DNA from: a virus
Taxonomy: Duplodnaviria; Caudoviricetes
DNA length: 61,699 nucleotides
Virus record (IMG/VR): IMGVR_UViG_3300020141_000500
Span: 1 to 61,699 of that record
Direction: 5' to 3' (one strand)
This document shows, in pieces, positions 17,330-60,058 of this stretch (its first letter is position 1; the number at the start of each line of letters is the position of its first letter). A model generated the notes under the pieces. That model searched no databases. It was not told the origin of the DNA and saw only the letters and a list, made by a program, of their open reading frames with translations. A program made the translations under genes and the position numbers.

Positions 17330-17447
17330 TCAGTCTTAAAGGTTATATAAAGTTCCAATTCTTATGATAATTGGATGGTGGAGGGTGATGTTGAGTTCAA
17401 CCACCCCTAATTAAGCCCCACAGAAATGTGGGGTTTTTTGTTTTTTT
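17330..17447 (+). ncRNA. candidate small structured RNA
   Basis: TTGACA at 17300 upstream, two hairpins and a terminator; no long ORF. Confidence 0.3.
17413..17447 (+). terminator. intrinsic terminator
   Basis: gccccaca-gaaa-tgtggggt followed by T tracts. Confidence 0.85.
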
Positions 17448-17528
17448 CTATGAGTTGTATATATTTATTGTTATAACTTTATACAAAAATATATGAAAAA
17501 ATCAGAATTAAAGCAGTTGATTAGAGAA
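17429..17528 (+). repeat. 100-bp direct repeat, copy 1 (terminator tail, promoter motif, first 12 codons)
   Basis: 99/100 identical to 18220..18319. Confidence 0.92.
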
Positions 17529-18201: not shown

Positions 18202-18238
18202 AACCCCAAACATAAAGTTTGGGGTTTTTTGTTTTTTT
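18202..18238 (+). terminator. intrinsic terminator (26 bp identical to 18937..18962)
   Basis: aaccccaaac-ataaa-gtttggggtt plus T tract. Confidence 0.85.
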
Positions 18239-18319
18239 CTATGAGTTGTATATATTTATTGTTATAACTTTATACAAAAATATATGAAAAAATCGGAATT
18301 AAAGCAGTTGATTAGAGAA
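18220..18319 (+). repeat. 100-bp direct repeat, copy 2
   Basis: 99/100 identical to 17429..17528. Confidence 0.92.
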
Positions 18320-42357: not shown

Positions 42358-45300
42358 ATGATAGATACATACGAAAAACTGAATACATCCTTTGCTCGCG
42401 TAGATTATATTGTTCATCTATCGGATGTTCATATTCGTTTGACAAAACGACATCAAGAATATCGCGAAGTGTTTGCTAAGATATATGAAGAAGTGAAAAA
42501 AACACCAGCAAACACAGTCATTATAAATACCGGAGATAGTTTTCACTCAAAATGCGACCTTTCGCCCGAGGCTGTGCAGATTGCAAGTGAGTTCTTCAAG
42601 AGTTTATCCGACTTGCGTCCTACAGTTGTTATTGCTGGCAATCATGATTGTTTGCTCACAAATGTTACTCGACTTGACAGCATTTCTCCTATTGTAGAAA
42701 ATTTGGCTCATGACAATCTTTATTATCTAAAAGAAAGCAAGTTGTATTCATTTGCCAATATTCTTATAAATAACATGTCTATTTTCACCGACCATACTTC
42801 ATTTATAAAGATGAAGGACGTGTCAAAGAAAATCAAGATAGAGTTTGATACAAAGATTGCTTTATTTCATGGTGGTGTATTTGACGCCAAGACTGATGTA
42901 GGTTATACAGTAACCAACAAGAGTATCATGAATGATATGTTTGATGGTCATGATATGGCATTGTTGGGTGATATTCATTTGGCACAAAATCTACAAATGT
43001 GTGATATAGCAGCAGAAAAACCAATCATTCGTTATGCTGGTTCGGTTATTCAACAAAATCATGGCGAAGCATTGCTTGGTCACGGCATTTGTTTGTGGGA
43101 CGTAAAGAACAGAGCATACAAGCATGTAGAAATACCAAATGATTATGGTTATTTTACTATTGATATTGATGACGGCAAGTTGATGACTGATATAAGCACA
43201 ATGCCCAAGAAGCCAAAACTTCGTGTGCGTTGCAAAGAAACTATTGCTACTGAACTAAAAAAGGTAGTAAATGAAATCAAAAAGACGCATGAAATCAGCG
43301 ACATTATTTATATGCGAGTTGATGGCGATGATGCTTCCAAAGTTGTGAGTGTTCAAGCTGCTGCCAACTTGAGTCAGATTGGCAATGTTGATTATCAAAA
43401 TAAACTTATTAGTGAAACACTCAAAGCTAAATATCCAGATATTATGGATGATGACACACTTGAGTCTGTTCATAAAATCAACAAAGACCTCAATACTGAT
43501 TTGAGTAAAGATGATACTGCTCGCAATATTCGTTGGAAGCCAATCAAGTTTGAGTTTAGTAATATGTTTAGTTATGGTGAAAACAATGTGATTGACTTTA
43601 CAAAATTATCAGATGTATACGGATTGTTTGCGTCGAATGCAAGTGGAAAATCTTCTCTTTTTGACGCATTGTGCTTTATCGCATTTGATAAATCTGCTAA
43701 AGCATTCAAAGCAACTCATGTGATGAACTCACAAAAAATGTCTTTTCATGGCAAGTTCACATTTGAGATAAATGATGTTCAATATATCATTGAGCGTAAA
43801 GGCATCAGAGATAAAAAAGGCAATGTAAAAGTTGATGTAAACTTCTATAAGATGGAGAAAGAAGAAAAGATTAGCCTCAACAGCGAAGCTCGCAGAAGCA
43901 CAAATGAAATCATTCGCGATTATATTGGTGATTATGATGACTTTGTATTGACCTCTCTTGCATTACAAGGCAATCAAGGTTCATTTGTTGAAATGGGTCA
44001 AACTGAACGTAAGGATTTGTTGTGCCAGTTCATTGGTCTAAATGTGTTTGATAAACTTGTAGTAAAAGGCAATGACAAACTAAAAGAACTAACAGGTGCC
44101 ATCAAGTCATTCAACAAAGAAAGCAATCAAGTCAAGATTGAGTCGAACAAAAATGATTTGGGATTGGCAGAGTCCAAACTTATTGATTTGACCACTCAAA
44201 AAGATTTTTACACAACAAAAAAGAATGAGTTTGACAACAAAATCAGCGAACAACAATCCAAGATTGTAAAACTTGAAAATGTGCCAACAAATGTAGTGGC
44301 TCTAAAGAAAGAACGCGAAACTTTGGAAACAAAAAATAGTCAATCCGTTGATGCCATTTCAGTTATTGACACAAACACAGAGTCAAAGAAAAAAGAATAT
44401 GTGGATGCGTCTAATAAAATATCTGCTTGTCCAAGTGATCTAAAAGAAAAATCAGACAAGCATGCAGGTTTGGTTCGTCAAAAAAATCGTCTTGAACAAG
44501 ACATGGAAAAGCTAAAGCTTGTGGTCAAAGAAAAACTCAAGAAGATAGAACATCTGTCCAACCACAAATATGATCCAAATTGTGAATATTGCTGTGATAA
44601 TGCGTTTGTAAAAGATGCTATATCTGCCAAAGATAGTTTGGAATCCGACAAAACTGATGCAAGAGAATTGTTTGATGCCATATCAACCATAAAAACACAG
44701 ATTGTAGAAGTTGAACCATTTGTAGCTCAATATGAACAAAGTGTGCTGCTCAAAGAAACCATCAATACACTCACAGCATTTATTTCCAAGAAAGAACTGG
44801 AGAAATCTAATCTAAACAATCTTATATCCAAAAACTCTAACAGAATAGTTGAGATTGATACTCTGGTTGAGTTGTATGAAAAGTCCAAAGAAATCGTAGA
44901 AAGCAACAAGATTGTTGAATCATCTATTTATGATTTGAAAAATGATGTTGCTACTATAACATCAAAACTAAAGAATATTGAACGAGAATATGTGGATGCT
45001 TATAGTCGTAAAGTATCATTGACTGACCAAATCAAAAGCATCGAAGAACAAATCAAAAAAGTAGAAGAGTATGAAAACGAGCTTGCTGCTTATCAATATT
45101 ATCTAACTTCAATTGGTAAAGATGGCGTGCCATACAAGATTATTTCAGATGCCATTCCAAGAATTGAACAAGAAGTAAATAATATATTATCTCAAATGGT
45201 TGAGTTTAGTATGAGCATTGAAACAGATGGCAAGAATGTCAATGTATATATCAAATATGATGATAAAAAATGGCCATTGGAACTATGTTCTGGCATGGAA

Positions 45301-45564
45301 AAGTTTGTTAGTGCTTTGGCTTTGAGAGTATCTTTGATCAACATCAGCAATCTACCGCGTTCCAACTTTTTGGTAGTTGACGAAGGAATGTCGGCCTTGG
45401 ATGCTTCAAATCTTCCTATGCTACATGCGCTGTTTGATTATCTAAAGAGCAGCTTTGATTTTATTATTATAATAAGCCATCTTGACGCTATGAGAGACAT
45501 GGTAGACAAGCAGCTGGAAATCAAGAAAGAAAACGGATTTAGCAAGATTGATAATAGCGTCTGA
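42358..45564 (+). CDS. fused SbcD/Mre11 nuclease and SbcC/Rad50 ATPase (gp47-gp46-like)
   Basis: SDVH, TGD, GNHD and GDIH phosphoesterase motifs; NASGKSS, Q-loop, CEYC hook, SGME, VVDEG and IISH. Confidence 0.9.
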   Translation: MIDTYEKLNTSFARVDYIVHLSDVHIRLTKRHQEYREVFAKIYEEVKKTPANTVIINTGDSFHSKCDLSPEAVQIASEFFKSLSDLRPTVVIAGNHDCLLTNVTRLDSISPIVENLAHDNLYYLKESKLYSFANILINNMSIFTDHTSFIKMKDVSKKIKIEFDTKIALFHGGVFDAKTDVGYTVTNKSIMNDMFDGHDMALLGDIHLAQNLQMCDIAAEKPIIRYAGSVIQQNHGEALLGHGICLWDVKNRAYKHVEIPNDYGYFTIDIDDGKLMTDISTMPKKPKLRVRCKETIATELKKVVNEIKKTHEISDIIYMRVDGDDASKVVSVQAAANLSQIGNVDYQNKLISETLKAKYPDIMDDDTLESVHKINKDLNTDLSKDDTARNIRWKPIKFEFSNMFSYGENNVIDFTKLSDVYGLFASNASGKSSLFDALCFIAFDKSAKAFKATHVMNSQKMSFHGKFTFEINDVQYIIERKGIRDKKGNVKVDVNFYKMEKEEKISLNSEARRSTNEIIRDYIGDYDDFVLTSLALQGNQGSFVEMGQTERKDLLCQFIGLNVFDKLVVKGNDKLKELTGAIKSFNKESNQVKIESNKNDLGLAESKLIDLTTQKDFYTTKKNEFDNKISEQQSKIVKLENVPTNVVALKKERETLETKNSQSVDAISVIDTNTESKKKEYVDASNKISACPSDLKEKSDKHAGLVRQKNRLEQDMEKLKLVVKEKLKKIEHLSNHKYDPNCEYCCDNAFVKDAISAKDSLESDKTDARELFDAISTIKTQIVEVEPFVAQYEQSVLLKETINTLTAFISKKELEKSNLNNLISKNSNRIVEIDTLVELYEKSKEIVESNKIVESSIYDLKNDVATITSKLKNIEREYVDAYSRKVSLTDQIKSIEEQIKKVEEYENELAAYQYYLTSIGKDGVPYKIISDAIPRIEQEVNNILSQMVEFSMSIETDGKNVNVYIKYDDKKWPLELCSGMEKFVSALALRVSLINISNLPRSNFLVVDEGMSALDASNLPMLHALFDYLKSSFDFIIIISHLDAMRDMVDKQLEIKKENGFSKIDNSV

Positions 45565-47856: not shown

Positions 47857-49809
47857 ATGAAAATTTTATATATAGCTCCGCATTTATCAACGGGTGGATG
47901 TCCACAATTTTTGTTTAAGAAGATACAGGTTTTACACAAAGACCATGAGATATATTGTATTGAATATGCAGACCACGGATGTTTCACAGTACAAAAGAAC
48001 AAAATAAAAGAAATTCTCAAAGACAGGTTGATTTCTGTGAATTATGATCGCTCAAAAATAGTTGATATAATCAAAGATTTGGACCCAGATGTGGTGCATC
48101 TGGAAGAAATGCCAGAATATTTCATGGACAATGACATTGCTAAAAAGATATACATCAAAGATAGACGATATAAAATCATTGAAACATCGCATGACAGCAG
48201 CTTTGATCCAAAAGGTAAAGTGTTCTTTCCAGACCGATTGATATATGTGAGCAAATATCAAAAAGAAAATCTCAAAGAAATTGATGTGCCATCCGAAGTT
48301 TGTGAATATCCTATTCTAATAAATCCAAGAAAGCCAAGAGAAGAAGCACTAAGAGTGTTGGGTCTTGATCCAAAGAAAAAGCATGTGATGCATGTTGGTT
48401 TGTTCACATCAAGAAAAAACCAAAAAGAAATTATTGAGTATGCCAGAATACTCAAAGACCAACCAATACAGTTCCATTTCATTGGAAATCAAGCGGACAA
48501 TTTTAGAAGCTATTGGGAACCATTGATGAAAAATTTTCCATCCAACTGCAAATGGTGGAATGAAAGAAAAGATGTAGATAATTTTTATCAAGCAGCCGAT
48601 TTGTTTCTGTTTGTGTCTAAGGATGAAAATGGAGACAAAGAAACAAGTCCATTGGTTATACGCGAAGCAATATCATACAATATACCAACGTTGATTTATA
48701 ATTCTCCTGTGTATATGGGAATGTATGACAAATATGAAAATATAAAATATCTTGATTATGATGACAAGGATGAAAATTTAAACAGAATACTAAAAACTCT
48801 AAATCTAACAGAACCAAAAAAAATGCACATATTTCAATCCAATTGGGACATGAACGAACAAAAGATGTACTACTCGGTGAATACCAATGTAGATTTTCCT
48901 ATAATAGTCGCGTTGAGAGAATACAAGTCCGACGCTGTGTTGTGGTCTACCACATACGAAACTTTTCCACCAAATTGCAATTTTTGGATGATTCCTGTCT
49001 CAAAGAGTAACCGAGATTACTCCACAGAAGAAACATTTTCTGGCATAAAGCTTTGCATATACAAAAAAGAAACGGGCGAACAGATTTACGAGCAACCATA
49101 TTTTTATAAATTTGCAAATGTTCCAACGGTCACTTTGAGCAATCGTGCTCCATACTATGATAACTATACAGAATTTTTTGTTCGCGACAAATACAAAGAA
49201 TGGTTGGGCAACAAGAAGTTTGATGTTGCGGTTGACGTTGGTGCAAATGTAGGCGTGTTTACGCGATATTTGATACACAATAAAATAGCAAAGAGGGTTG
49301 TGTCGGTTGAATGCGACTCCGCCGCTTTATTTGATTTGAAAAGAAACTACGAATTTAACGACAATGTGAAAATAATTGAAAAAGCATTAAGCGACACGAA
49401 CGATCCAATAACATTTTATCACTGCGAAGAAAATCCAATCGTAAGCAGCACAATTCCACCGGAAAAGCTAAAACAACACATGGCCGGTGTGAGGGGAAAT
49501 GTGAAAACCACGGTTGATGCTGTTACAATAAGGGATCTGGTTGATGAACTTGGTCAAATTGATTTGTTGAAGATTGACATCGAGGGAGGCGAATACAAAA
49601 TTATAGAAAAGTTGGAAACCAAGTTGTTTGACCATATAAATAACATATTCATTGAATGTCATTTTTTTGAGGAAGATTATAAAGAAAAGTATGTATCTCT
49701 ACTTGAAAAGTTGCGCAACAATGGATATGAAGTAAAAGAATATCTATCGAATCAGTCGAATAATGCCGGAACCAGTGAATGTATTTTTGCTACTAAAAAA
49801 TCTCAATAA
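47857..49809 (+). CDS. GT4-like glycosyltransferase fused to FkbM-family methyltransferase
   Basis: HLSTGG, RKNQ and ETSPLVIREA; VDVGANVG and LLKIDIEGGE. Confidence 0.85.
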   Translation: MKILYIAPHLSTGGCPQFLFKKIQVLHKDHEIYCIEYADHGCFTVQKNKIKEILKDRLISVNYDRSKIVDIIKDLDPDVVHLEEMPEYFMDNDIAKKIYIKDRRYKIIETSHDSSFDPKGKVFFPDRLIYVSKYQKENLKEIDVPSEVCEYPILINPRKPREEALRVLGLDPKKKHVMHVGLFTSRKNQKEIIEYARILKDQPIQFHFIGNQADNFRSYWEPLMKNFPSNCKWWNERKDVDNFYQAADLFLFVSKDENGDKETSPLVIREAISYNIPTLIYNSPVYMGMYDKYENIKYLDYDDKDENLNRILKTLNLTEPKKMHIFQSNWDMNEQKMYYSVNTNVDFPIIVALREYKSDAVLWSTTYETFPPNCNFWMIPVSKSNRDYSTEETFSGIKLCIYKKETGEQIYEQPYFYKFANVPTVTLSNRAPYYDNYTEFFVRDKYKEWLGNKKFDVAVDVGANVGVFTRYLIHNKIAKRVVSVECDSAALFDLKRNYEFNDNVKIIEKALSDTNDPITFYHCEENPIVSSTIPPEKLKQHMAGVRGNVKTTVDAVTIRDLVDELGQIDLLKIDIEGGEYKIIEKLETKLFDHINNIFIECHFFEEDYKEKYVSLLEKLRNNGYEVKEYLSNQSNNAGTSECIFATKKSQ

Positions 49810-49845
49810 TAAAATCTCAATAATAAAATCTCAATAATAAAATCT
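49797..49845 (+). repeat. 14-bp tandem repeat aaaatctcaataat x3.5
   Basis: Units at 49797, 49811, 49825 and a partial unit at 49839. Confidence 0.92.
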
Positions 49846-50664
49846 ATGGTTATATTTTTATATAGCGACAAAAACTGCGAACATCAAGCAATGGCTTGCA
49901 TCAAATCATTAACTCACAAAATTACAGATGATGTAAAGATTGTATACTATACAATCGGATTCGACAGCAGGTTTGAATTCAAGAACTTAAACAAAGTTCG
50001 TATTGAATACAAACCACAATATCCAACATTTCATTTTTATAAAGCCGAGCTGTCTTTACTTACTATGCAGATGTTTCCCAATGATTATTATCTATTTACA
50101 GACACCGACGTATTGTTCTCACGAAACTTCAACTTCAACGACCATAAATATAACGAGTCATATCCCATGGCAAGTTATGGTCCACATGAATATCCATTCA
50201 TTTGGCAAGAAGTAAACGGCGTTAAGATTATTTTTAATGAAAAGAAACTAATGACATACCACGGTGTAGCCGACAGAAGTATGAGATACTGCTGGTCTTG
50301 CTTTTTTGCATTTAATCCAAACTGCAAAGAGTTTTTTGAAGAATATACTTCAATTTGTCAGAACAAATATTTGCTTGATCGCCGCAAAGATTATTTTCCA
50401 TATGCCGACGAAACTGCATTTAATGTATGCTTGTGGAAGCGCGGGGCCACTAAGAATCTAAAACAAGGATTTGTAAACACACATTCACTAGAAACGGTAA
50501 AAATTGTGGAAGAAAGAAAAGCAAAAAATAAAGTGTTTATGAACAGTGTAGACGCATTTGGTTCAAGTTGGGAAGCCGTTGAAGATCCAGATAAAGTATT
50601 GCTATATCACGGATTTAAAGAAAAAATAGAAATGGATAAGACCGTTGATTATCTGTTGGCATGA
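49846..50664 (+). CDS. putative GT-A fold nucleotide-sugar transferase
   Basis: YLFTDTDV (DxD), DETAFNV and YHG motifs; located in the glycosylation cluster. Confidence 0.55.
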   Translation: MVIFLYSDKNCEHQAMACIKSLTHKITDDVKIVYYTIGFDSRFEFKNLNKVRIEYKPQYPTFHFYKAELSLLTMQMFPNDYYLFTDTDVLFSRNFNFNDHKYNESYPMASYGPHEYPFIWQEVNGVKIIFNEKKLMTYHGVADRSMRYCWSCFFAFNPNCKEFFEEYTSICQNKYLLDRRKDYFPYADETAFNVCLWKRGATKNLKQGFVNTHSLETVKIVEERKAKNKVFMNSVDAFGSSWEAVEDPDKVLLYHGFKEKIEMDKTVDYLLA

Positions 50665-50727
50665 AATTTAATAAAAATAAAATACTTGACCCAAAAAAAC
50701 GGAAGTTTTGCTAGATTGAAATAAAAT

Positions 50728-50763
50728 ACTTGACATTGAGTAAAACTTTAAATATATACACTG
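50728..50763 (+). promoter_or_regulatory. 36-bp repeat copy 1 containing TTGACA-17-TATATA
   Basis: 35/36 identical to 52846..52881. Confidence 0.7.
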
Positions 50764-50789
50764 GGAAATCAAGTAAAAATGAAAATATT

Positions 50790-51419
50790 ATGGCAAACGG
50801 AATATACAGAATAACAGAAGAGTTTGAAGAAAAATTAGCAAAATACACAGGAGCACAATACGCTGTCACACTTGACAACGCTAGTAATGCCTTGTTTTTA
50901 TCGTTATATTACGAAAATATTAAAGGTTCTACTATAACCATACCCACCAGAACATACCCAAGTGTTCCATGCGAAATCATACATGCTGGCGGCAAGGTTG
51001 CATTTGAACCAGTTGAAGGTGGAACTATAAAGGGTGCATATCAATTGAAACCAACCAGAACATGGGATAGTGCATTAAGATTTACATCAAATATGTATAT
51101 TCCAAATACATTTATGTGTATTTCATTCACTGGGCCATATAAGCACTTCAAATTAAGTAAGGGTGGAGCTATTCTTACGGACGATCTTAAAGCATATCAT
51201 TGGTTCAAGCGTGCAAGATATAGCGGAAGACGTGAGTGTTCATATCACGACGACAATCTGGACATGCTTGGGTGGAACTTTTATATGATGCCGGAATTGG
51301 CCGCACGTGGTGTTCTTCTCATGAATCAATTTTATAATATGGATGGTACGCCAAAACAAAATGATGATTTGGAAATGCCATATCCGGACTTGTCAAAATT
51401 TGAAATATATAAACAATGA
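50790..51419 (+). CDS. short DegT/DnrJ/EryC1/StrS-family PLP-dependent sugar aminotransferase
   Basis: FEEKLAKYTGAQYAV...NALFLSL, WDSA, CISF...KH...GGAILTDD, GWNFYM. ATG at 50790. Confidence 0.75.
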   Translation: MANGIYRITEEFEEKLAKYTGAQYAVTLDNASNALFLSLYYENIKGSTITIPTRTYPSVPCEIIHAGGKVAFEPVEGGTIKGAYQLKPTRTWDSALRFTSNMYIPNTFMCISFTGPYKHFKLSKGGAILTDDLKAYHWFKRARYSGRRECSYHDDNLDMLGWNFYMMPELAARGVLLMNQFYNMDGTPKQNDDLEMPYPDLSKFEIYKQ

Positions 51420-51967
51420 TTCGAGGATTTTCAAATTACACAAGAGAGGAACTGATAAACTCACTTCTTTCTATCGGAGAAAACGTCTATATTTCAGACG
51501 ACGTTATATTACACAATCCACAAAACATAATTATTGGAAATAATGTTAGAATAGATTCTCAGTGTATATTGATTACAGGTAAAAATACTAAAATAAAAAT
51601 TGGAAACGACGTACATATTTCTGCCGGATGTTATTATTATGGAAATTCTGGAAATATCACACTCGAAGATTCTGTGTGTACGTCGGCTCGGTGTACATTA
51701 TATACCGCAAATGATGATTACACCGAAGGATATATGGCAAACTCTATGGCACCCAAAGAGTACAAGAAAGTAACCACCGGCGATATATTACTAAAAAAAT
51801 ATAGTCTCGTGGGATGTTATACTGTGATATTGCCAAATGTAACACTCGAACATGCCACGTCGGTTGGTGCTCACTCACTGGTAACAAAATCAACTATTCC
51901 ATTTGATATTATAGCAGGCGTTCCTGCGAAATTTATAAAGAAGAGAAAAAACGTATATCTAAATTAA
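51416..51967 (+). CDS. hexapeptide-repeat (left-handed beta-helix) sugar acyltransferase
   Basis: IGENVYIS, IGNNVRID, IGNDVHIS and AGVPAKFIK motifs. Confidence 0.85.
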   Translation: MIRGFSNYTREELINSLLSIGENVYISDDVILHNPQNIIIGNNVRIDSQCILITGKNTKIKIGNDVHISAGCYYYGNSGNITLEDSVCTSARCTLYTANDDYTEGYMANSMAPKEYKKVTTGDILLKKYSLVGCYTVILPNVTLEHATSVGAHSLVTKSTIPFDIIAGVPAKFIKKRKNVYLN

Positions 51968-51968
51968 T

Positions 51969-52925
51969 ATGAAAAAATGCGCAATTATACCATGTTTTAT
52001 AAGTAATCAATATCGGCGAGATTTGATAATCAGTCAGACTAAATTCTTCAACGATCTAAATATAGACGTAGTGTTGGTGTCATCGAATCATATAGAAAAA
52101 ATTGAAGGTGTTAAAAATTATATTACCATAAACCACGTGATTAATAAAAAGTATTTATCGGAGGGAATTTTTCCATATTGCTGTATTGATGGAATTAAAT
52201 ACTATTCGGGCACTGCTTATAGTAATATTTCCGCGTCAAACTTTTTCGTAAAATTATTTCAAGCTTCTTTTAATTATTGTAAAAATTTGGGTTATGATTT
52301 TTGTTATGTTCTTGATTTTGATAATATAATAAAAGAAAGCCACGTTGATGTCGCATTTGGCAAAAATTTAGACTATTCAAAAATTTATTTTTATGATTTG
52401 CAAAAATCAAATGAATATCAAGGTGCATTTTTTTATGGCAATTTGAATGTGTTGGTTGATATTTTTTCGGAAAAAAATCTAAACTATATAGAAAAATTAG
52501 CAACTGAAAAAAAGGTAATAACCAATGAACAAGTATTATTTGAAATATCGCAATATTATAATAAATTTATAATAGTATTAAAACATAAAGACTTTGAAAT
52601 ATTTTCAACGAGAAACATGTTTTCCAGTAGAAATGTTGCGGATATATTTTACGATGGAGAACGCAAAGAATATTGGTTTTTACAATATAAAGGAGATACC
52701 TGTGAAAACGAGTTTGCGTGTGAATTATTTTTGGACGATGTTCTTATATATTCCAACCACTTCAAACACACTAGATATTGGAGCTTGCGTAAATTGGAAA
52801 ATAATAAAAATTATAAAATAAAATATTATGACGCCGCGATATCTGACTTGACATTGAGTAAAACTATAAATATATACACTGATACAAGTACGGTTACTAC
52901 ATCAAACTGGATACAAAGAACTTAA
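51969..52925 (+). CDS. hypothetical protein, possibly glycosyltransferase-like
   Basis: GYDFCYVLDFD DxD-like motif; cluster context. Confidence 0.5.
   Translation: MKKCAIIPCFISNQYRRDLIISQTKFFNDLNIDVVLVSSNHIEKIEGVKNYITINHVINKKYLSEGIFPYCCIDGIKYYSGTAYSNISASNFFVKLFQASFNYCKNLGYDFCYVLDFDNIIKESHVDVAFGKNLDYSKIYFYDLQKSNEYQGAFFYGNLNVLVDIFSEKNLNYIEKLATEKKVITNEQVLFEISQYYNKFIIVLKHKDFEIFSTRNMFSSRNVADIFYDGERKEYWFLQYKGDTCENEFACELFLDDVLIYSNHFKHTRYWSLRKLENNKNYKIKYYDAAISDLTLSKTINIYTDTSTVTTSNWIQRT
52846..52881 (+). repeat. 36-bp repeat copy 2 (promoter-like, inside the 3' end of 51969..52925)
   Basis: acttgacattgagtaaaactataaatatatacactg. Confidence 0.8.
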
Positions 52926-52926
52926 A

Positions 52927-55062
52927 ATGAAAATAATCAATATCACGCCGGGACTTATATCAATTCCACCAAATGGGTGGGGTGCAATCGAAAAAATTAT
53001 TTGGGATTATCATCTTGAATTGAACAAGCTGAACATCCGTAATGAGATAAAATATCTCAATGATGTTAAATATGACGAAAGTATGGTTGTGCATGTACAC
53101 GTGGCTAATCTCGCCAATATGCTTCATGAACGCGGTGTTCCATACATCTTTAGCATTCATGATCATCATGCTTTTTTGTATGGTAAAGATTCTCATGTAT
53201 ATAAAGAAAATTTGAAAGCAATTGAAAATAGTGTGTTTTCTTTGTCACCATGTAAGTTTTTGATACCATATTTTGGAAGCAAAAAGTTGAGATATGTATC
53301 TCACGCCGTCAATACAGATGTATTTGCCTACAAAGCAAGAGAAATGAGCAGCAATCCAAAGTTGTTGTGCGTAGCCAACAATGGATATGCTAATGACCAA
53401 AACAAAGACCGTAAAGGGTTTGCTATTGCAATTCAAGCGGCTAAACAGTTGGGACTACCGCTTACGATTGCCGGTCCACGCAACAATGATAACTTCTTCA
53501 AAACACTTGATCCTGAACTCAACAACTATGAACAACTAACCAAGATATATGACTTGGATGAAAAGTCTCTCATTGAGTTGTATAACAGCCATGATATATT
53601 TTTACATTTCTCTGAACTAGAAGCCGGTCATCCAAATCTTACATTGTTGGAAGCAATGGCATGTGGTTTGCCCGTGGTTGGTACGTTTGAAGAACAAAAA
53701 TATAAAGGTATGGTTGTTACTTCGCGTGATATATCTGAAGCAATTCGTGGTATTGAAGATGTGAGATTAAATTATAAAGCATACAAAAATGCCGCGTTGG
53801 AAAATGCCAAAGAAAATTCATACAGCAACAGAGTACATGATTTGGCCAAACTATACAGCGAATATCGTGAATGTATTTTTGGTAATCAATTGATTGATAG
53901 TTACAAAAACACAGATGTGGTATACAAAGAGCCAAAGAAACCAGAAAACAAAATTAAAATAACTTTCGATGATGGTGCCAAGGTGGATATACCCGGCCCA
54001 GTTGACAAGAGTTATAAGATCAAGTTTATTGATTTTCACACAGGTCATGTTGTGTATGAAACCAAACTTAAAAATAACATGTGGGCATCAACTTCCACAA
54101 AGTATTTCAACAAGTGGGTGGTTGAGGTATATGACATATCAGATGGTTATGATGTATTGGTAGAAAAACACACATTTGATCCAAAAAACAAAAAAGTTAA
54201 AGTTGTGTTAGACAGCGAAAGCCTTGGGGATTTGTTGGCATGGATTGGTGCCGTCGATGAGTTTCAAAAGAAACATCAATGTATAATGGAATGTGCAGTG
54301 TTTAATAAAGTACTTCGTCCAATGTTTGAGAAGAATTATCCAAATATAAAATTCTTGGCTGTGGATGTGTATACAGATCCATATTATGCTAAATACAAGA
54401 TTGGCTGTTTTGATGGAGAAAATAGCAAGAATCATATTCCAACCGACCCAAGATTGCTCAATCTATGTTCTATTGCCACAACCATACTGGGTTTGACCAA
54501 CATAGAATACAAACCAAAGATTACTTTTGATGCCAATAAGTATAAAAATGTAAAGAAGAAGTATGTGTGTATTGCTACTCAAAGTACTTGTCAAGCAAAG
54601 TATTGGAACAACAAAACTGGATGGAAGACCGTGGTGGATTATCTAAAACGCAATGGATATGAAGTATGGTGTATTGACCGACACAATAGTTTTGGCGTAG
54701 ACAAAAGTATGAATTATATGCCAGAAGGTTGTGTAGATAAAACCGGCGACTTTACACTGGACGAACGCATGGCTCAAATAGCAGGAGCACAGTTCTTTAT
54801 TGGACTAAGTTCCGGTTTGAGTTGGTTGGCATGGGCCGTAGGCAAGCCCGTGGTGTTGATCAGTGGATTTACCAAGAGTCTGTGCGAGTTCCATACTGAA
54901 TATAGAGTGATCAATGAAAATGTGTGTAATGGCTGTTGGAACGATGTGTCCTGCAAGTTTAGTCGCAATGATTGGTTTTGGTGCCCAAGGAACAAAAACT
55001 TCGAATGTTCCAAGGAAATATCAGCCGACATGGTATTGAAACAAGTCAAAAAATTGATATAA
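52927..55062 (+). CDS. GT4-like glycosyltransferase fused to Aah/TibC-type autotransporter O-heptosyltransferase domain
   Basis: IPPNGWGAIE and LLEAMACGLPV; SLGD, YVCIATQSTCQAKYWNN, FFIGLSSGLSWLAW, CNGCWND...WCPR...FECSK. Confidence 0.85.
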   Translation: MKIINITPGLISIPPNGWGAIEKIIWDYHLELNKLNIRNEIKYLNDVKYDESMVVHVHVANLANMLHERGVPYIFSIHDHHAFLYGKDSHVYKENLKAIENSVFSLSPCKFLIPYFGSKKLRYVSHAVNTDVFAYKAREMSSNPKLLCVANNGYANDQNKDRKGFAIAIQAAKQLGLPLTIAGPRNNDNFFKTLDPELNNYEQLTKIYDLDEKSLIELYNSHDIFLHFSELEAGHPNLTLLEAMACGLPVVGTFEEQKYKGMVVTSRDISEAIRGIEDVRLNYKAYKNAALENAKENSYSNRVHDLAKLYSEYRECIFGNQLIDSYKNTDVVYKEPKKPENKIKITFDDGAKVDIPGPVDKSYKIKFIDFHTGHVVYETKLKNNMWASTSTKYFNKWVVEVYDISDGYDVLVEKHTFDPKNKKVKVVLDSESLGDLLAWIGAVDEFQKKHQCIMECAVFNKVLRPMFEKNYPNIKFLAVDVYTDPYYAKYKIGCFDGENSKNHIPTDPRLLNLCSIATTILGLTNIEYKPKITFDANKYKNVKKKYVCIATQSTCQAKYWNNKTGWKTVVDYLKRNGYEVWCIDRHNSFGVDKSMNYMPEGCVDKTGDFTLDERMAQIAGAQFFIGLSSGLSWLAWAVGKPVVLISGFTKSLCEFHTEYRVINENVCNGCWNDVSCKFSRNDWFWCPRNKNFECSKEISADMVLKQVKKLI

Positions 55063-55088
55063 TAACGCAGTTATATATACTTATAAGC

Positions 55089-58000
55089 ATGGACATTTCT
55101 ATAAAGAACCTAAAAAAGTATATTTTTGAACCAAAAACAGAGTCTCTGCGTCTAAAAAGGGCCAATGAAATACTAAGTCAGAACATGGTCATCACCGAAA
55201 AGGTGGATGGAACAAAACTTACATTGGTACGTACACAGCAAGTTGATAAAGTAGATTATACCAAAAATTGGGTTGTGGCATATAAAGGAACTGTGTTATA
55301 TGCCAAAGAGTTTGCTCATTTGGGTGATAAAGAAAAGGGTGATATATCCCAATCTTCTGTTGGTATTGGTCAATATTCCATGATATTTGATCATTTGGCC
55401 AAGATAAACAATAAGATTAACAGCATTCCAAAGAGCACTGAGTTTAGTGTTGAGTTTGCTCAAAACAAAGACACATTGACTCGTACATATGTCAACAAGG
55501 GTGGCTTGTTCTTGAGAAGTTATGGTGAAGTGCAGTATCGTGTAGTTGGCGGAGATTTGCACACCATTCCAAAACAAGAAATAACAGATTACAAATCTGT
55601 GAATAAGATGGCAGAATTGTTGGAAATATCATCATTTCCCATATTCTTTCAAGGAAAACTCAGCAAGGAAAATCTGCTAAAGAATCCTTTGTTTGGATCA
55701 AAACTAACAAATGTTGATTGGTCCAATCCGACTGATGTTGTGACAAAATTTTCGGAGGCTATTCTGGCTGTTCCATCTACATTGGGTGGCACAACAGAGG
55801 GTGTGGTAATGAAGCTTGATAATGGAGAGTTCTTCAAGTTGGTGCAAGCCGATCAATATGATGCTGGAGTTCGTGGTGCAAAGAAGGACGCATATAAACT
55901 TGAACCAGAAGCCGCTTCAGCATACTTTCAACAAATCAGAGCATTGATTCAAAATATCTTTGCTGCGATTGGCACTGAAGGAAAATCCGAAGAAGATGTT
56001 ATTTCAGATTCTAATTTTTATATTGCCAAAAACGGTGCCAAGTTAAAGAAGTTCTTTGATGCTCTGCAAAAGATTGCTGGTGATAAAAAGAATATTGTTC
56101 AAATCAAAGATGACATTCACGACACTATTCGTTTGATGACATCAAAACAAGGTTTGCTTGGTTCAACGGGAAAAACTCTTGCTCTTATTCCAATTGCTGG
56201 CAAGCCGCTACACATTGGTCACTGGAAGCTTATTGAAAAAGCAGCCAATGAAAATGATAGAGTGATTGTTTATACATCATCTTCTGACAGAATAAAGAAG
56301 GGCGAGTTTCCTATAAAGGGAGATGACTTTGTGAAACTATGGAGTGATGTGTTTATTCCATCTTTACCAAATAATGTAAAAGTAAAGTTTGTTGATTCTC
56401 CAGTTCGCGCTGTTATGCATGAACTTGGATGGTTGGAACAAAGATTGACTCAAGACGCCGCAGATATGCCAACCATAAATTTGTATTCTGATAAAGACGA
56501 CGTTGAAACAAACTTTAAAGACGAAGATTTAAAAAAGTATCCAGAGTTGTTGGCGGCTAATAAAATTAAAAAAGTTGGTGTAGAAAGAACTGCTACTGTC
56601 AATGTCAGCGGAACCAAGATGCGTGAATTTTTGATGAACAATGATAAAGAATCATTCTTGAAAAATCTTCCACCGGTCAGCAACAAAGACAAAGAAGAAA
56701 TTTGGAATACTCTCATAGCAAACAAGCCAGAACCAGTATCAGAAGTTAATCCATATGCTGCTTTGGCAGAAGAATTGATACAAGCAGAAACAGAGTTGTT
56801 TCGTGAAGGTGGTTGGAGATCTACTGCTACACAATCAACTATTATAACTCCAAAGAAAGTGTCAAATATTTTGAGTACAATGAACAAGTTTGTATCAGAA
56901 TTCAATGCATATTCAAATCTTCCTCCTATAGAATCCAATGGTCCGGTAGGTTCAGCGATGTATTATAAACAAGATTTGGAAAAAGATGATGTAGAATATG
57001 GTGATATAGATATTCAAATTATATTGCCAGAAGAAAGCAATGATAGAACATCACAACTAGCATCCAATAAAAAATATTCAGACAAGATTATCCAGTTTAT
57101 TCAAGAAAAAAAACCGAGCTATATATATCCAAACTTTCAAGATAAAGACTTTGGCACAGGATATTTAATATTCAACGTTGGTGGTGAAAACATCCAAGTT
57201 GATTTGGTTTTGTCATATAAAGTATCATCAGAATGGACAAAAATTAGAACAACTCCAGAAAAAGGACTAAAAGGATTTGTTACTGGAAATCTATTGAGTG
57301 CATTGTCCGATGCTCTTAATGTTGTGCTGGGATCAAACACCAATCCATATATAAATACGATAGATGGTAAGGTTGCGTCATCTCTGATTAAAACAAACGC
57401 AAAGCCTGTGTTCTTTAGTCCAAATCAAGTATTTTTGGATATATTGAAGTTCTATGGCAATCTTGCAGGTGTTTCAAAAGTAAATTCATCAGTATTACAG
57501 GGTTATTATGGATTGGATGCAAACGATCCATCATTAAAGAAAAAATGCGAAACCGTGGTTGCTTTGAGTAAAGCACTTGATAATAACAGAGCATTTGATA
57601 AAGGAGTTGTTGTATCAAAGAATGGAACGGCATTTAAATCCAGAGAAGAATTTGTAAAATATGTATTAGATACATTCATAAAAAATATGAAATCGGCAGG
57701 CACTGCAAAAAAATTAGAAAAAGCAGAAACACCAGAAGCTATGAAAAATATTGAAAAGATAAAACGTGACGCAAATCTTGGTATAGAATTGGCAAAGCAA
57801 CTAATCAGAGAAGAAATTGCATTATTGACCGAGTCTGGTCAATCTGTTGCAATGGCATTCGATAAAAAAACAGAGACTGTCATTGGCCCAAAGACTGTCA
57901 ATGGTCAACCAGCCCAAGCCACCACAAAACTCAGGATTGTTGATCCACAAGGCAAAGACATTCGTTCTGCTGTATCTGGTGATGTGAAGGAACTTATATA

Positions 58001-59024
58001 TGCACTAAATAGTAAGGTAGGTTTTTGGAAAAAGAACAATCCATATATTGAAAATGGGTTTGTGTTCAACGGCAGTTCTCAATATCTAATGAACGGTGAT
58101 GCAAAATATAAAGATTTAGCTAAATACAAATCTGGATTTGGTGACATTGATGTGATCGTGCCAAAAGAAAAGTTGGACACAATGGAAGCATACTTGGATA
58201 ACATTGATGATAGAAAAGTGGAATGGACGCCAACACCAGAAAATAAAGTTAGTAAAAATTTTTATTATGTTGGTCGTACAAAAAATCAACGTGCTTTGGC
58301 CGGTCAAACAGTCACATTGTGGTATTATGCTCCAGTAAAACAAGTAGTACAAATTGACTTTGAAGGAGATGAAATGACACTTGATCCACAGGGATTTGAA
58401 AAACCATCTGAATGGAACAAGTTTATCAAAGATTCTCCATGGCAAGATTTGACCATAGGAATCAAAGGATTGGCAGGAGCTATTTTGTTGCGTGGTCTGA
58501 CACGAGCAGCAACCGCAATACCAAATGCTGTGTATGTCACCAACTCAACTGCACTCAAGATACAATCCGGTGAGTTGAAGAGTTTGGTTAATACCAAGGG
58601 CAAGAGCATGGTTTCTACAAACGCTATTCACTCACTGCTTTCGCAATATACATTGAATACAAGCGGTTCTGGTCATGCTGGTGTTCGCAAGGCATACCGC
58701 CTTGTTGCTAAGAACATGGATCATGAAGGTAAGAAAGTTGATGTTTATACCGACATTGCTGCCAGCGAAAGCAAACCAGAAGATCGTATCAACAGCGTAA
58801 ATAAAGTATTTGAACTAATTTTTAAACGCAAGCCAAGTAGTCAAGATGTTGAAAACTTCAGAAGTTATGTTGGATTGCTGACACTCATGAAGACTCTACC
58901 AAAAGATGTTCAAGTCAACGCGTTGGAAAAAGCCAAGGACGGTTTGACTCAAGCAGGTTTGGAACCGGCAGAATATGCTCCAATTCAAAAAGCAGCCAAA
59001 ACGATTTTGGGAATATCCATATAA
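55089..59024 (+). CDS. 1311-aa multidomain protein: ligase-type adenylyltransferase, HIGH-family nucleotidyltransferase, two Pol-beta-like nucleotidyltransferases
   Basis: TEKVDGT/EGVV/FK; KPLHIGH...SGTKMR; VGS...GDID...QVDL; NGSS...GDID...QIDF. ATG at 55089 after ATACTTATA. Confidence 0.75.
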   Translation: MDISIKNLKKYIFEPKTESLRLKRANEILSQNMVITEKVDGTKLTLVRTQQVDKVDYTKNWVVAYKGTVLYAKEFAHLGDKEKGDISQSSVGIGQYSMIFDHLAKINNKINSIPKSTEFSVEFAQNKDTLTRTYVNKGGLFLRSYGEVQYRVVGGDLHTIPKQEITDYKSVNKMAELLEISSFPIFFQGKLSKENLLKNPLFGSKLTNVDWSNPTDVVTKFSEAILAVPSTLGGTTEGVVMKLDNGEFFKLVQADQYDAGVRGAKKDAYKLEPEAASAYFQQIRALIQNIFAAIGTEGKSEEDVISDSNFYIAKNGAKLKKFFDALQKIAGDKKNIVQIKDDIHDTIRLMTSKQGLLGSTGKTLALIPIAGKPLHIGHWKLIEKAANENDRVIVYTSSSDRIKKGEFPIKGDDFVKLWSDVFIPSLPNNVKVKFVDSPVRAVMHELGWLEQRLTQDAADMPTINLYSDKDDVETNFKDEDLKKYPELLAANKIKKVGVERTATVNVSGTKMREFLMNNDKESFLKNLPPVSNKDKEEIWNTLIANKPEPVSEVNPYAALAEELIQAETELFREGGWRSTATQSTIITPKKVSNILSTMNKFVSEFNAYSNLPPIESNGPVGSAMYYKQDLEKDDVEYGDIDIQIILPEESNDRTSQLASNKKYSDKIIQFIQEKKPSYIYPNFQDKDFGTGYLIFNVGGENIQVDLVLSYKVSSEWTKIRTTPEKGLKGFVTGNLLSALSDALNVVLGSNTNPYINTIDGKVASSLIKTNAKPVFFSPNQVFLDILKFYGNLAGVSKVNSSVLQGYYGLDANDPSLKKKCETVVALSKALDNNRAFDKGVVVSKNGTAFKSREEFVKYVLDTFIKNMKSAGTAKKLEKAETPEAMKNIEKIKRDANLGIELAKQLIREEIALLTESGQSVAMAFDKKTETVIGPKTVNGQPAQATTKLRIVDPQGKDIRSAVSGDVKELIYALNSKVGFWKKNNPYIENGFVFNGSSQYLMNGDAKYKDLAKYKSGFGDIDVIVPKEKLDTMEAYLDNIDDRKVEWTPTPENKVSKNFYYVGRTKNQRALAGQTVTLWYYAPVKQVVQIDFEGDEMTLDPQGFEKPSEWNKFIKDSPWQDLTIGIKGLAGAILLRGLTRAATAIPNAVYVTNSTALKIQSGELKSLVNTKGKSMVSTNAIHSLLSQYTLNTSGSGHAGVRKAYRLVAKNMDHEGKKVDVYTDIAASESKPEDRINSVNKVFELIFKRKPSSQDVENFRSYVGLLTLMKTLPKDVQVNALEKAKDGLTQAGLEPAEYAPIQKAAKTILGISI

Positions 59025-59085
59025 TAAATGTTCGCAAAGAATAAATGAAGCGAACATTCATATATATACAAAAGGTTATAACATT

Positions 59086-59706
59086 ATGAAAAACACGGAT
59101 ATAATTAAGTCATATTTGGCAGGAGAAAGACCCTATATAAAAGTAGGATATACTGGCGATAAGGATAAGTTTATCGTTCGCAAAACAGGTGAACGCTGGA
59201 CTGATAGTAGCGGAAAAGAATGGGAACAAAAAGAATATGGTCCGTCAGCAGTAACCAGAGTTTCGGACATCATTAGAATAGAAACCAACGATAAATGTAA
59301 ATGCTGTGGCACTGAGGTTCGTTGGGGATCAAAGATTGATCGCAAAATGCATCTCAAAACCGGTAAATGTTTTGATTGTTTGATTGAAGAAGAAACTCAA
59401 CTGCGTCTCAAAGGCAAGTTCAAGCTATACGAAACCAAGAAACTGTTGGAGAATGAATTATCTTACTTGAATGATATAAAGCAGAAACTCAAAGAAAGCA
59501 AAGAATATTTGGCATCAAATGATTCAAAAAAACTAACATATGTCAATTCCAATGGATTTGTTGAAGAATGGGATAACAATGTGCGTGCTGAACTGACCAC
59601 GAGTATAGAAAAAGATTGGAAAACTTGTTTGAAGAAAATCAAAGAAGGTCAAAAAGAGTTAAAGAAAATCAACAATGAAATTGACTCAGTTCTTGCACCA
59701 GTCTGA
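59086..59706 (+). CDS. hypothetical protein with CxxC...CxxC zinc finger and coiled coil
   Basis: CKCC...CFDC; ATG at 59086 preferred. Confidence 0.7.
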   Translation: MKNTDIIKSYLAGERPYIKVGYTGDKDKFIVRKTGERWTDSSGKEWEQKEYGPSAVTRVSDIIRIETNDKCKCCGTEVRWGSKIDRKMHLKTGKCFDCLIEEETQLRLKGKFKLYETKKLLENELSYLNDIKQKLKESKEYLASNDSKKLTYVNSNGFVEEWDNNVRAELTTSIEKDWKTCLKKIKEGQKELKKINNEIDSVLAPV

Positions 59707-60058
59707 TATAATCGAAGGATTGGCAATCAGAGTAAAGAACAAATACCCAGAAAAAGGTATGTGTGAGTTTATTGCGAAAGATTTGGTAAAAGAACTAAAA
59801 AGTCGTGGTATAAATGCTAAACATGTTGAAGGTAATTTCACATTGGACGAACCAGCAGCATATCAATTTATTAGTCCATTGGATGAAGTAAATGATGAAT
59901 ATACCATAGACCATGATTGGGTGGAAGTAGAAGGTGTGATTGTTGATGCATCAGCTTCTCAATTTAGAAAATATGTGTATGAACAAATACCAGACATTGT
60001 AATGGCAAATTATACACATCCGTTATATACCAAATACGAACCGCACAATTATGTCTAA
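59675..60058 (+). CDS. small transglutaminase/papain-like fold protein
   Basis: GMC...HDWVE...IVDAS..QF gives a Cys-His-Asp order. Confidence 0.5.
   Translation: MKLTQFLHQSDIIEGLAIRVKNKYPEKGMCEFIAKDLVKELKSRGINAKHVEGNFTLDEPAAYQFISPLDEVNDEYTIDHDWVEVEGVIVDASASQFRKYVYEQIPDIVMANYTHPLYTKYEPHNYV

Follow-up and report, generated by a model that had tools for sequence, protein, structure and literature searches.

A four-domain phage nucleotidyltransferase protein with candidate prohead-protease sites at its domain junctions

Proteins in which a phage joins several nucleotidyl-transfer enzymes in one chain raise the question of whether the chain works as a whole or is cut into its parts, and where those parts would act. 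This question was raised by a 1311-residue open reading frame (ORF), P0001, of a T4-like phage in the IMG/VR virus record IMGVR_UViG_3300020141_000500. The window analysed here is that whole record of 61.7 kb, judged to be 27% complete. The protein consists of an RNA-ligase-type domain (domain 1), an adenylyltransferase of the NMNAT/PPAT type with a HIGH motif (domain 2) and two polymerase-X-like nucleotidyltransferases (NTases; domains 3 and 4). The best reading of the sequence comparisons, to which we give a probability of roughly 0.55, is that the protein would be cut by a prohead protease and loaded into the capsid.

The four-domain composition was established from conservation and fold. 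The listed frame (54972..59024, + strand) began with a TTG that lies within the upstream gene; the conserved start, kept in 19/19 homologs, was the ATG at 55089 (MDISI…). The protein collection held 72 homologs, about 40 of them full length (1279-1372 aa), and invariance was scored in an alignment of 19 full-length homologs sharing 52-94% identity. Residues invariant in all 19 were K38, D40, G41, E237 and G238 in the ligase domain; H375, G377, H378, S507, G508, T509 and R512 in the HIGH domain; G621, S622, G638, D639, D641 and D705 in domain 3; and G995, S996, G1018, D1019, D1021 and D1090 in domain 4. Together with the fold matches described below, this invariance bore out the original prediction, made from the letters of the window alone, of four nucleotidyl-transfer domains in one protein. 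The motif coordinates were likewise exact (T36-E-K38-V-D-G, from 55194 to about 55211; H375-I-G-H378, from 56211; G638-D-I-D641, from 57000; G1018-D-I-D1021, from 58140). Searched by sequence against PDB chains, the whole protein gave 0 matches at E<=1; Pfam gave no match across its C-terminal 740 residues, and PHROGs assigned residues 1-354 and 978-1270 to families whose function is unknown. Of 50,697 cultured-phage records, 25 matched the whole protein (Campylobacter 17, Vibrio 6, Xanthomonas 2), and queries with two stand-alone NTases matched 23 records each (Campylobacter 15, Vibrio 6, Xanthomonas 2). All of these matches were annotated as hypothetical.

An AlphaFold model of residues 1-572, built from 19 sequences, had a predicted local distance difference test score (pLDDT) of 87.9. 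In Foldseek, this model matched the fungal tRNA ligase Trl1 (E 3.7e-9) and T4 Rnl2 (2hvr; E 1.4e-7), with further matches to T4 Rnl1, the Naegleria nick-sealing ligase NgrRnl and archaeal Rnl3. The Pfam model PF09414 (RNA_ligase) matched the window protein at E 2.9e-4 and 21.5 bits, under its curated cut-off of 27 bits, and a precomputed match to the same model was carried by 11 of the 72 listed homologs. The motif E37-K38-x-D40-G41-T42-K43 was invariant in the 19 full-length homologs and also in all 19 rows of a second alignment that comprised the window domain, one fused relative and 17 split ligase/HIGH proteins. Furthermore, E118/E122 (TEFxxE), E237-G238-x-V240 and K250 were invariant in this split-form alignment, as were H378 and R512 of the HIGH domain; the motif IV lysine K242 and the second motif V lysine were not conserved. 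Here, the assignment of motifs III, IIIa, IV and V follows the motifs of Rnl2 and is provisional. The catalytic motifs were kept across split relatives of 25-38% identity. The ligase assignment is thus a prediction from modelled fold and motifs, not from sequence statistics. Like T4 Rnl2 (rnlB), Rnl5 and Trl1, the window domain has a KxDG lysine motif, a motif IV of the form EGxV and the same overall fold. It differs from T4 Rnl2 in giving no significant sequence match, in a motif IV lysine that is not conserved and in being always fused to a HIGH domain. T4 rnlB also adjoins head genes (23-24), but it sits on the strand opposite to them.

For domain 2, Foldseek matched an archaeal NMNAT (E 8.7e-5), with PPAT, NaMNAT and ATP sulfurylase at similar E values. 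PHROGs assigned residues 363-546 to cytidyltransferase (3041/395; E 4e-8) and NMNAT (3462; E 5.8e-5) families, and a ligase/HIGH profile searched against the PDB found M. jannaschii NMNAT (5.1e-5) and PPAT (1.3e-4). Sequence matches to NMNAT and PPAT spanned the first 40-80 residues of the HIGH domain only. The Pfam model CTP_transf_like scored 13.4 bits on the window protein, under its cut-off of 21, and HIGH-type Pfam families matched residues 357-404 only; a relative in which a HIGH domain is fused to an NTase (P0197) reached 22.5 bits with CTP_transf_like. In its HxGH and SxTxxR motifs and its Rossmann-like fold, the domain resembles archaeal-type NMNAT and PPAT. That it is an NMNAT which rebuilds NAD+, as had been proposed, was weakened, because it resembled NMNAT, PPAT and ATP sulfurylase about equally and because a Nampt/NAPRTase partner gene was present in 0/5 large related contigs, one of them 100% complete.

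The GS…DxD…D set of domain 4 was invariant across 19 distant relatives as well. In a fold comparison of domain 4, family X polymerases filled the top nine rows, and the family X DNA polymerases (Pol beta/lambda/mu, TdT, ASFV Pol X) appear to be its closest known folds. The idea of a CCA-type transferase accordingly found no specific support. Foldseek of the domain-4 model against the PDB gave no match at E<=1e-3, and nine matches at this threshold in BFVD were all unnamed or uncharacterised. Stand-alone relatives of domain 3 (n=6) measured 315-373 aa. When the domain 3 and domain 4 families (15 and 99 sequences) were compared by hhalign, they aligned over 304 columns with a probability of 83.9% and an E value of 7.8e-6, with the catalytic motifs in register; by sequence, the two domains appear to be remote paralogs. 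Pfam models of the Pol-beta superfamily had no match at E<=0.1 in the 19 domain-4 relatives, the six domain-3 relatives or the window domains, and both NTase families are without a Pfam model.

The junctions between these domains carry candidate processing sites. In linker 1, residues 550-554 had a pLDDT below 50 and were predicted to be flexible, and residues 555-571 formed a helix. The following E573-G574-G575-W576-R577 was invariant in 19 homologs, and 18 of the 19 had [LIVMF]xE at this site. The helical tail of domain 3 ends in …IALLTE915, where [L/I]xE was found in 19/19 homologs. Nine [L/I]xE motifs occur in the window protein, and those kept in 19/19 were E383, within the folded HIGH domain, and E915, at the boundary of domains 3 and 4. 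Site 2 is homologous to the start of stand-alone domain-4 relatives, which is either M↓GGN or a leader ending [LI]xE↓GGN (the arrow stands after the start methionine or at the candidate protease cut). As originally claimed, both Pol-beta-type domains start at protease-type Glu sites, E573 in a weaker form with F at P3 (P1 being the Glu before the cut). Two viral contigs held natural deletion forms. In L018, most of domain 3 was gone and both junction motifs were kept; in L023, domain 3 was reduced to …SIDE↓GGWRVTDTQST, directly before …LLKE↓SGQSV. These forms therefore show how domain 3 comes or goes between the two sites.

Comparison of start types suggested that the mature N-terminus is fixed as Gly-Gly in both NTase families. 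Of the 23 unfused NTases taken from viral contigs, five began M↓GGN and 18 had a leader ending [LIV]xE↓GGN, for example MFSIANFIFGSYDGLVE↓GGN. In two of the five M↓GGN forms the ATG follows the upstream stop by only 2-3 codons, which leaves no room for a hidden leader. A domain-4 profile was then searched over 1.84 billion cluster representatives (50% identity), which gave 729 members at E<=1e-3 and 462 at E<=1e-30. Among the best 148 of these 729 representatives, 74 had an MGGN start, 58 had a leader ending E↓GGN and 16 had other starts, several of which look like miscalled starts just before MGGN and some of which are fusions. The 58 leaders were 4-42 aa long (median 13), with only P1 and P3 fixed. 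P3 was L in 38, I in 18, V in one and M in one; L or I thus stood at this place in 56/58 leaders, compared with 16.2% of all 5168 Glu in the same proteins. Even the shortest leaders, of 4-5 residues (MLLE, MLYE, MVLSE), had L-x-E. The stand-alone domain-3 relatives behaved alike: one of six began M↓GGW and five had a leader ending E↓GG (MISFRGFLIE↓GGW, MRIFEILSE↓GGW, …NLLSE↓GGL, …AILNE↓GGL, …NTNE↓GGW), where P3 was L four times and T once. Because the Glu and the L/I at P3 appear only when residues precede the GG, the pattern fits a cleavage site and not a structural element.

Some of the leaders also resembled known head-targeting sequences. An F-K-E/Q-F-type core was present in 10/58 leaders (e.g. 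MKSFKQFLLE, MKAFKQFVIEEKLLTE and MIKTFKEYRSLILE), and one leader from a viral locus had a T4-like core, MKNSKFKTYSEFLLE. In the T4 record, IPII and IPIII begin MKTYQEFIAE and IPI begins MKTFKEF…, which the ten leaders resemble. T4 gp21 cuts after Glu within I/L-x-E motifs, according to an excerpt of PMC12991175, and the first ten residues of IPIII suffice for T4 head targeting, with residues 8 and 10 governing processing, according to an excerpt of PMC9026906. The junction motif was found in every fusion form inspected: HIGH-NTase fusions had …YYLIE↓GGN, …NKLFE↓GGN and …KLIKE↓GGA, and in NTase-ligase fusions IRE↓S, LYE↓S or LKE↓S stood 3-4 residues ahead of LDISI, where the ligase starts. An M-GGN-type NTase, 48% identical to a phage representative, was also seen on a 427-kb contig labelled as a Thermoplasmatota metagenome-assembled genome (L076), which may be a jumbo phage binned with an archaeon. 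The contig scan, in which this was the one locus found, used a narrow alignment and a single peptide pattern, and says little on absence from cellular genomes.

The genomic setting was examined by clustering the neighbours of 63 related viral loci and naming the clusters with PHROGs. In one large clade, the gene order was TerL-portal-…-protease-…-major head protein-NTase-ligase/HIGH-head-tail adaptor-…-sheath; in the window clade it was polyprotein gene-two small genes-TerL-portal-…-protease. The module always stands among head genes and thus belongs to their block, and this synteny across related loci supported a head-gene neighbourhood for the polyprotein gene. A gp21-family prohead protease (PF03420, 89-99 bits) was encoded in 5/5 large related contigs, including a 297-kb, 100% complete contig whose polyprotein homolog is 93% identical.

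Module architecture was read from the same 63 loci and from domain hidden Markov models (HMMs) mapped onto all retrieved proteins, of which 229 matched at least one of the four domain HMMs. In distant relatives, the NTase (385-495 aa) and the ligase/HIGH protein (~525-620 aa) are encoded by adjacent genes, NTase first. Vibrio phage Va1 has this pair with a few small ORFs between, and in Campylobacter phage CPt10 a long distance separates the two genes. The NTase of Va1-type Vibrio phages begins M-GGN without a leader, and that of CP220/CPt10/IBB_35-type phages carries a leader ending …ILE↓GGN. CPt10_0261, a 'possible virion structural protein' that adjoins the CPt10 ligase/HIGH gene, was considered as the NTase and rejected; the NTase is CPt10_1051, elsewhere in that genome. 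Nearer relatives have a fused ligase-HIGH-NTase of ~960-1000 aa, and the window clade has ligase-HIGH-NTase-NTase. Three fusions place the NTase before the ligase (P0147 and P0182, which have a HIGH domain, and P0144, in which none was detected), and three HIGH-NTase fusions and one NTase-HIGH fusion were also found among the 229 proteins. Since the three enzyme types have been fused repeatedly, independently and in both orders, they are taken to work together.

In the proposed scheme, the precursor would comprise three units: ligase/HIGH (residues 1-573), a small Pol-beta-superfamily NTase (574-915) and a polymerase-X-like NTase (916-1311). It would be made with the head proteins and enter the prohead, where a gp21-family protease would cut after E915 and probably after E573. 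The predicted products are a ligase/HIGH piece of ~66 kDa and NTases of ~39 and ~44 kDa, which would begin Gly-Gly or Ser-Gly, as in the stand-alone relatives. Because a prohead protease acts within proheads, the pieces would become capsid cargo: retained in the head, they would reach the next host along with the DNA, in the manner of T4 Alt and IPI-III. There the set would most likely act on nucleic-acid ends, the NTases filling or tailing 3' ends and the ligase sealing them. In our judgement, the combination of an RNA-ligase fold with polymerase-X-like enzymes may best be read as an end-filling or tailing and sealing set for RNA, DNA or hybrid ends. A role against tRNA-cleaving or NAD-depleting defences, as the original prediction had it, would be speculation. 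The claim that the protein is processed and packaged, which the original prediction had made, gained strong comparative support from the alternation of M-GG and [L/I]xE↓GG, the leaders like capsid-targeting sequences (CTS) and the gp21-type proteases; these steps, with ejection and substrate, are what we infer from sequence.

Several results weigh against this scheme of cutting and loading. The fused protein starts MDISI, like the unfused ligase proteins, and has no N-terminal CTS-like leader. CTS-like leaders were found only on unfused NTase relatives. No prohead protease gene was found in the window fragment (27% of the genome). P3 of site 1 in the window protein is F, not the canonical L/I. 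Stand-alone NTases without a leader made up 74 of the 148 examined, so packaging is either not universal in the NTase family or needs no leader. Phage IBB_35, which has homologs (AEF56792.1 and AEI88202.1), has a published virion proteome of 38 proteins (PMC3322345), and its GenBank notes are silent on the presence of the homologs in the virion. As for the domains themselves, the ligase/HIGH profile matched HIGH enzymes and no RNA ligase in the PDB at E<=0.1, and its hhalign comparison with T4 Rnl2 gave E 0.056 and a probability of 1%. Domains 3 and 4 showed no significant relation in BLASTP (E 0.025-0.035) or, with small alignments, in hmmsearch (E about 0.1) and hhalign (E 0.064).

Some of these results would suit a protein that is never cut, but acts late in the producing cell as a cytoplasmic multi-domain enzyme on phage or host nucleic acids, with [L/I]xE-GG as the structural start of the NTase fold. 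Such an enzyme would account for the missing N-terminal targeting leader in fused and unfused ligase/HIGH proteins and for the leaderless half of the stand-alone NTases. E383 further shows that the [L/I]xE motif alone proves nothing, because it is equally conserved inside the folded HIGH domain. We nevertheless consider an uncut enzyme unlikely: a structural element would persist in both start types, whereas the Glu and the L/I two residues before it occur only when residues precede the GG and are absent from the M-GG forms. Leaders that vary from 4 to 42 aa around a fixed P1 and P3, CTS-like cores and the position of the module among head genes point the same way. A still less probable alternative is that the protein belongs to the neighbouring glycan cluster, its HIGH domain activating a sugar phosphate for the glycosyltransferases. 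HIGH enzymes do include sugar- and glycerol-phosphate nucleotidylyltransferases, and genes for glycosyltransferase, FkbM methyltransferase, aminotransferase-like and acyltransferase proteins come immediately before the polyprotein gene in the window. In other clades, however, the module is flanked by the major head protein and the neck/tail genes and has no glycan genes near it, in contig G001 the glycan genes are found on its other side, and the HIGH domain is always tied to the RNA-ligase fold and the Pol-beta NTases; a role in glycan building is hence very improbable.

The cut itself could also serve as an activation switch, rather than or besides loading. The NTases would then need a free Gly-Gly, released by Met removal in leaderless forms and by the head protease in leader and fusion forms, and only prohead copies would be active. 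The second mature G was invariant in the domain-4 family and GG stood at the exact N-terminus in 74/74 leaderless representatives, as such a switch would demand; moreover, MLLE, MLYE and MVLSE are too short for the 10-residue T4 targeting sequence, yet they keep L-x-E. GG might be conserved simply on account of the first strand of the fold, and we know of no Pol-beta-fold enzyme that needs a free N-terminus, which makes the switch quite doubtful. An extended form, in which the NTases would be zymogens switched on by the head protease and would form with the ligase and HIGH enzymes an injected break-repair or end-modifying machine, is similarly speculative. Its work, tailing or gap-filling and then sealing, would fall in the earliest minutes of infection, with host RNA or the incoming genome as substrate. 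Loading of the cut pieces into the capsid remains the reading that we prefer, and the features on which it draws are collected in Table 1.

Table 1 Positions of the polyprotein gene, its domains and motifs, the candidate cleavage sites and promoter-like motifs in the window
Feature	Position	Strand	Details
Whole ORF P0001	55089..59024	+	1311 aa plus stop
Domain 1, RNA-ligase-type adenylyltransferase with helical C-terminal part	55089..56159	+	~residues 1-357; Pfam, Foldseek, motifs
Domain 1 motif I, K38	55200-55202	+	motif IV is E237-G238
Domain 2, HIGH-superfamily nucleotidylyltransferase	56160..56723	+	~residues 358-545; PHROGs, PDB profile, Foldseek
Domain 2 motif H375-x-G-H378	56211-56222	+	
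Domain 2 motif S507-G-T-K-M-R512	56607-56624	+	
Linker 1, low-confidence loop then helix ending L-F-R-E573	56724..56807	+	residues 546-573
Candidate cleavage site 1, E573↓G574	56805..56810	+	…ELFRE↓GGWR…
Domain 3, Pol-beta-superfamily NTase	56808..57833	+	residues 574-915; invariant motifs, stand-alone relatives
Domain 3 motif G621-S622	56949-56954	+	
Domain 3 motif G638-D-I-D641	57000-57011	+	
Domain 3 motif D705	57201-57203	+	
Candidate cleavage site 2, L913-T-E915↓S916	57825..57836	+	…ALLTE↓SGQSV…
Domain 4, polymerase-X-like NTase	57834..59021	+	residues 916-1311
Domain 4 motif G995-S996	58071-58076	+	
Domain 4 motif G1018-D-I-D1021	58140-58151	+	
Domain 4 motif D1090	58356-58358	+	
TATATATAC motif	55072..55080	+	9-17 nt upstream of start codon
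Sigma-70-like TTGAAA-16-TATAAT with TG	55036..55063	+	11/12 positions; overlaps end of upstream glycosyltransferase gene
ATATTTAT sites, e.g.	689, 8196, 9423, 17461, 18252, 25509, 28365, 34679, 36523, 39727, 40663, 45568		

The original prediction had also placed a late motif upstream of the gene, and this held in part. The candidate promoter motif TATATATAC precedes the start codon and is found again upstream of the next gene (59061-59069); it occurs seven times in the window against 0.58 expected, a count reached by 0/100 shuffles. Neither the canonical T4 late TATAAATA nor ATATTTAT, which precedes many other window ORFs, lies upstream of the polyprotein gene. TATAAATA was enriched in the window (23 vs 6.6 expected), much of which reflects ATATTTAT on the + strand. 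ATATTTAT itself occurred 23 times against 9.6 expected, 17 times on the + strand and mostly 10-40 nt before + strand ORF starts; it is a candidate phage promoter that differs from the T4 TATAAATA. Sigma-70-like matches were not enriched in the region (13 vs 20.5 expected), and the one at 55036 is a lead only. Elsewhere in the window, the 60 nt before the ORFs at 17493 and 18284 were identical (17433-17492 and 18224-18283), and therefore suggest a duplicated promoter-gene unit. A tandem repeat of the unit AAAATCTCAATAAT was found at ~49786-49845, directly before the ORF at 49846.

Downstream of the polyprotein gene, two small genes precede TerL, neither with a Pfam or PHROG match. One (58975-59706, ~206 aa, CxxC…CxxC) follows the polyprotein gene in 30 related loci, and the other (59675-60058, 127 aa) overlaps the TerL start and may encode the small terminase. 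Upstream, a glycan-building run (47857-55062) encodes a fusion of GT1 and FkbM methyltransferase (650 aa), a hexapeptide acyltransferase, a 229-aa ORF whose match to the DegT aminotransferase model is confined to positions 24-94, and a 711-aa protein in which GT1, TibC-like N-terminal and GT9 heptosyltransferase-like domains are fused. Further glycosyltransferases lie at 12455-15555. As TibC-type enzymes glycosylate proteins, virion glycosylation is a possibility. The glycan neighbourhood of the window was not kept in other clades. Two other ORFs were recorded: one of 1068 aa (42358-45564), in which an SbcD-like nuclease (residues 13-325) is fused to an SbcC-like ATPase (294-1066), subunits that T4 keeps as separate genes, gp47 and gp46; and one of 882 aa (9445-12093), with a G+C content of 0.45 vs ~0.35, negative GC skew and a weak PHROG match of unknown function.

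Among known systems, the closest in logic are T4 IPI/IPII/IPIII and Alt. Shared features are relatives' leaders that end [L/I]-x-E, some with a K-x-F/Y-K/Q-E-F core like MKTYQEFIAE, a gp21-family protease in relatives, genes among head genes and, as for Alt, enzymes as cargo. Here, however, whole enzyme domains fill the leader position, giving a polyprotein with internal sites, and the cargo, whose loading is predicted from sequence, would be nucleotidyltransferases and a ligase instead of an ADP-ribosyltransferase or small basic proteins. Giant phages of the phiKZ/SPN3US type use an S/A/G-x-E-type cleavage logo. Their ejection proteins, processed by a gp21-like protease, are comparable in being large head-internal proteins cleaved after Glu within short motifs, in some cases more than once, as described in an excerpt of PMC9026906; their cargo differs in including RNA polymerase subunits, and no homology with the window protein was seen. 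Polyvalent proteins of phages and conjugative elements (Iyer et al. 2017), as portrayed in the excerpted part of PMC5512222, likewise combine unrelated enzyme domains, including Pol-beta NTases, in one phage polypeptide near virion genes, and are predicted to be packaged, possibly cut up, and delivered. They are built, according to the same excerpt, on MuF/portal, zincin peptidase, ART and similar domains with self-processing peptidases; the window protein has no peptidase domain, and its cutting would be done by a separate prohead protease. RNA ligases are said in that excerpt not to associate with the 2H domains of the polyvalent-protein survey. The loading and cutting logic is thus known from the T4 internal proteins and Alt, and multi-enzyme delivery from polyvalent proteins (PMC5512222). 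What is new are two NTase families without a Pfam model and with a fixed Gly-Gly mature end, whole enzymes in place of leaders with protease-type junctions, and the steady partnership of NTases with an Rnl-type ligase and a HIGH enzyme. A full-text literature search found no paper describing the ligase/HIGH/NTase module.

Head-carried enzymes act before phage gene expression and decide the first minutes of infection, with T4 Alt and IPI, the N4 and phiKZ RNA polymerases and P1 Dar as the few known cases. Should the proposed loading be true, a large unannotated group of T4-like phages, with 729 cluster representatives (50% identity) for the domain-4 family alone, loads a ligase and nucleotidyltransferases. 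The pattern of M-GG or leader-[L/I]xE↓GG would then be a simple sequence predictor of head cargo and protease sites. To our knowledge, the biological role of Rnl2-type phage ligases is unsettled, and the zymogen machine, if true, would give them a concrete biological setting. The loading scheme, for its part, would suggest that nucleic-acid ends are repaired or modified as the genome enters, and would give biochemistry new small enzymes of polymerase-X-like and RNA-ligase-like type.

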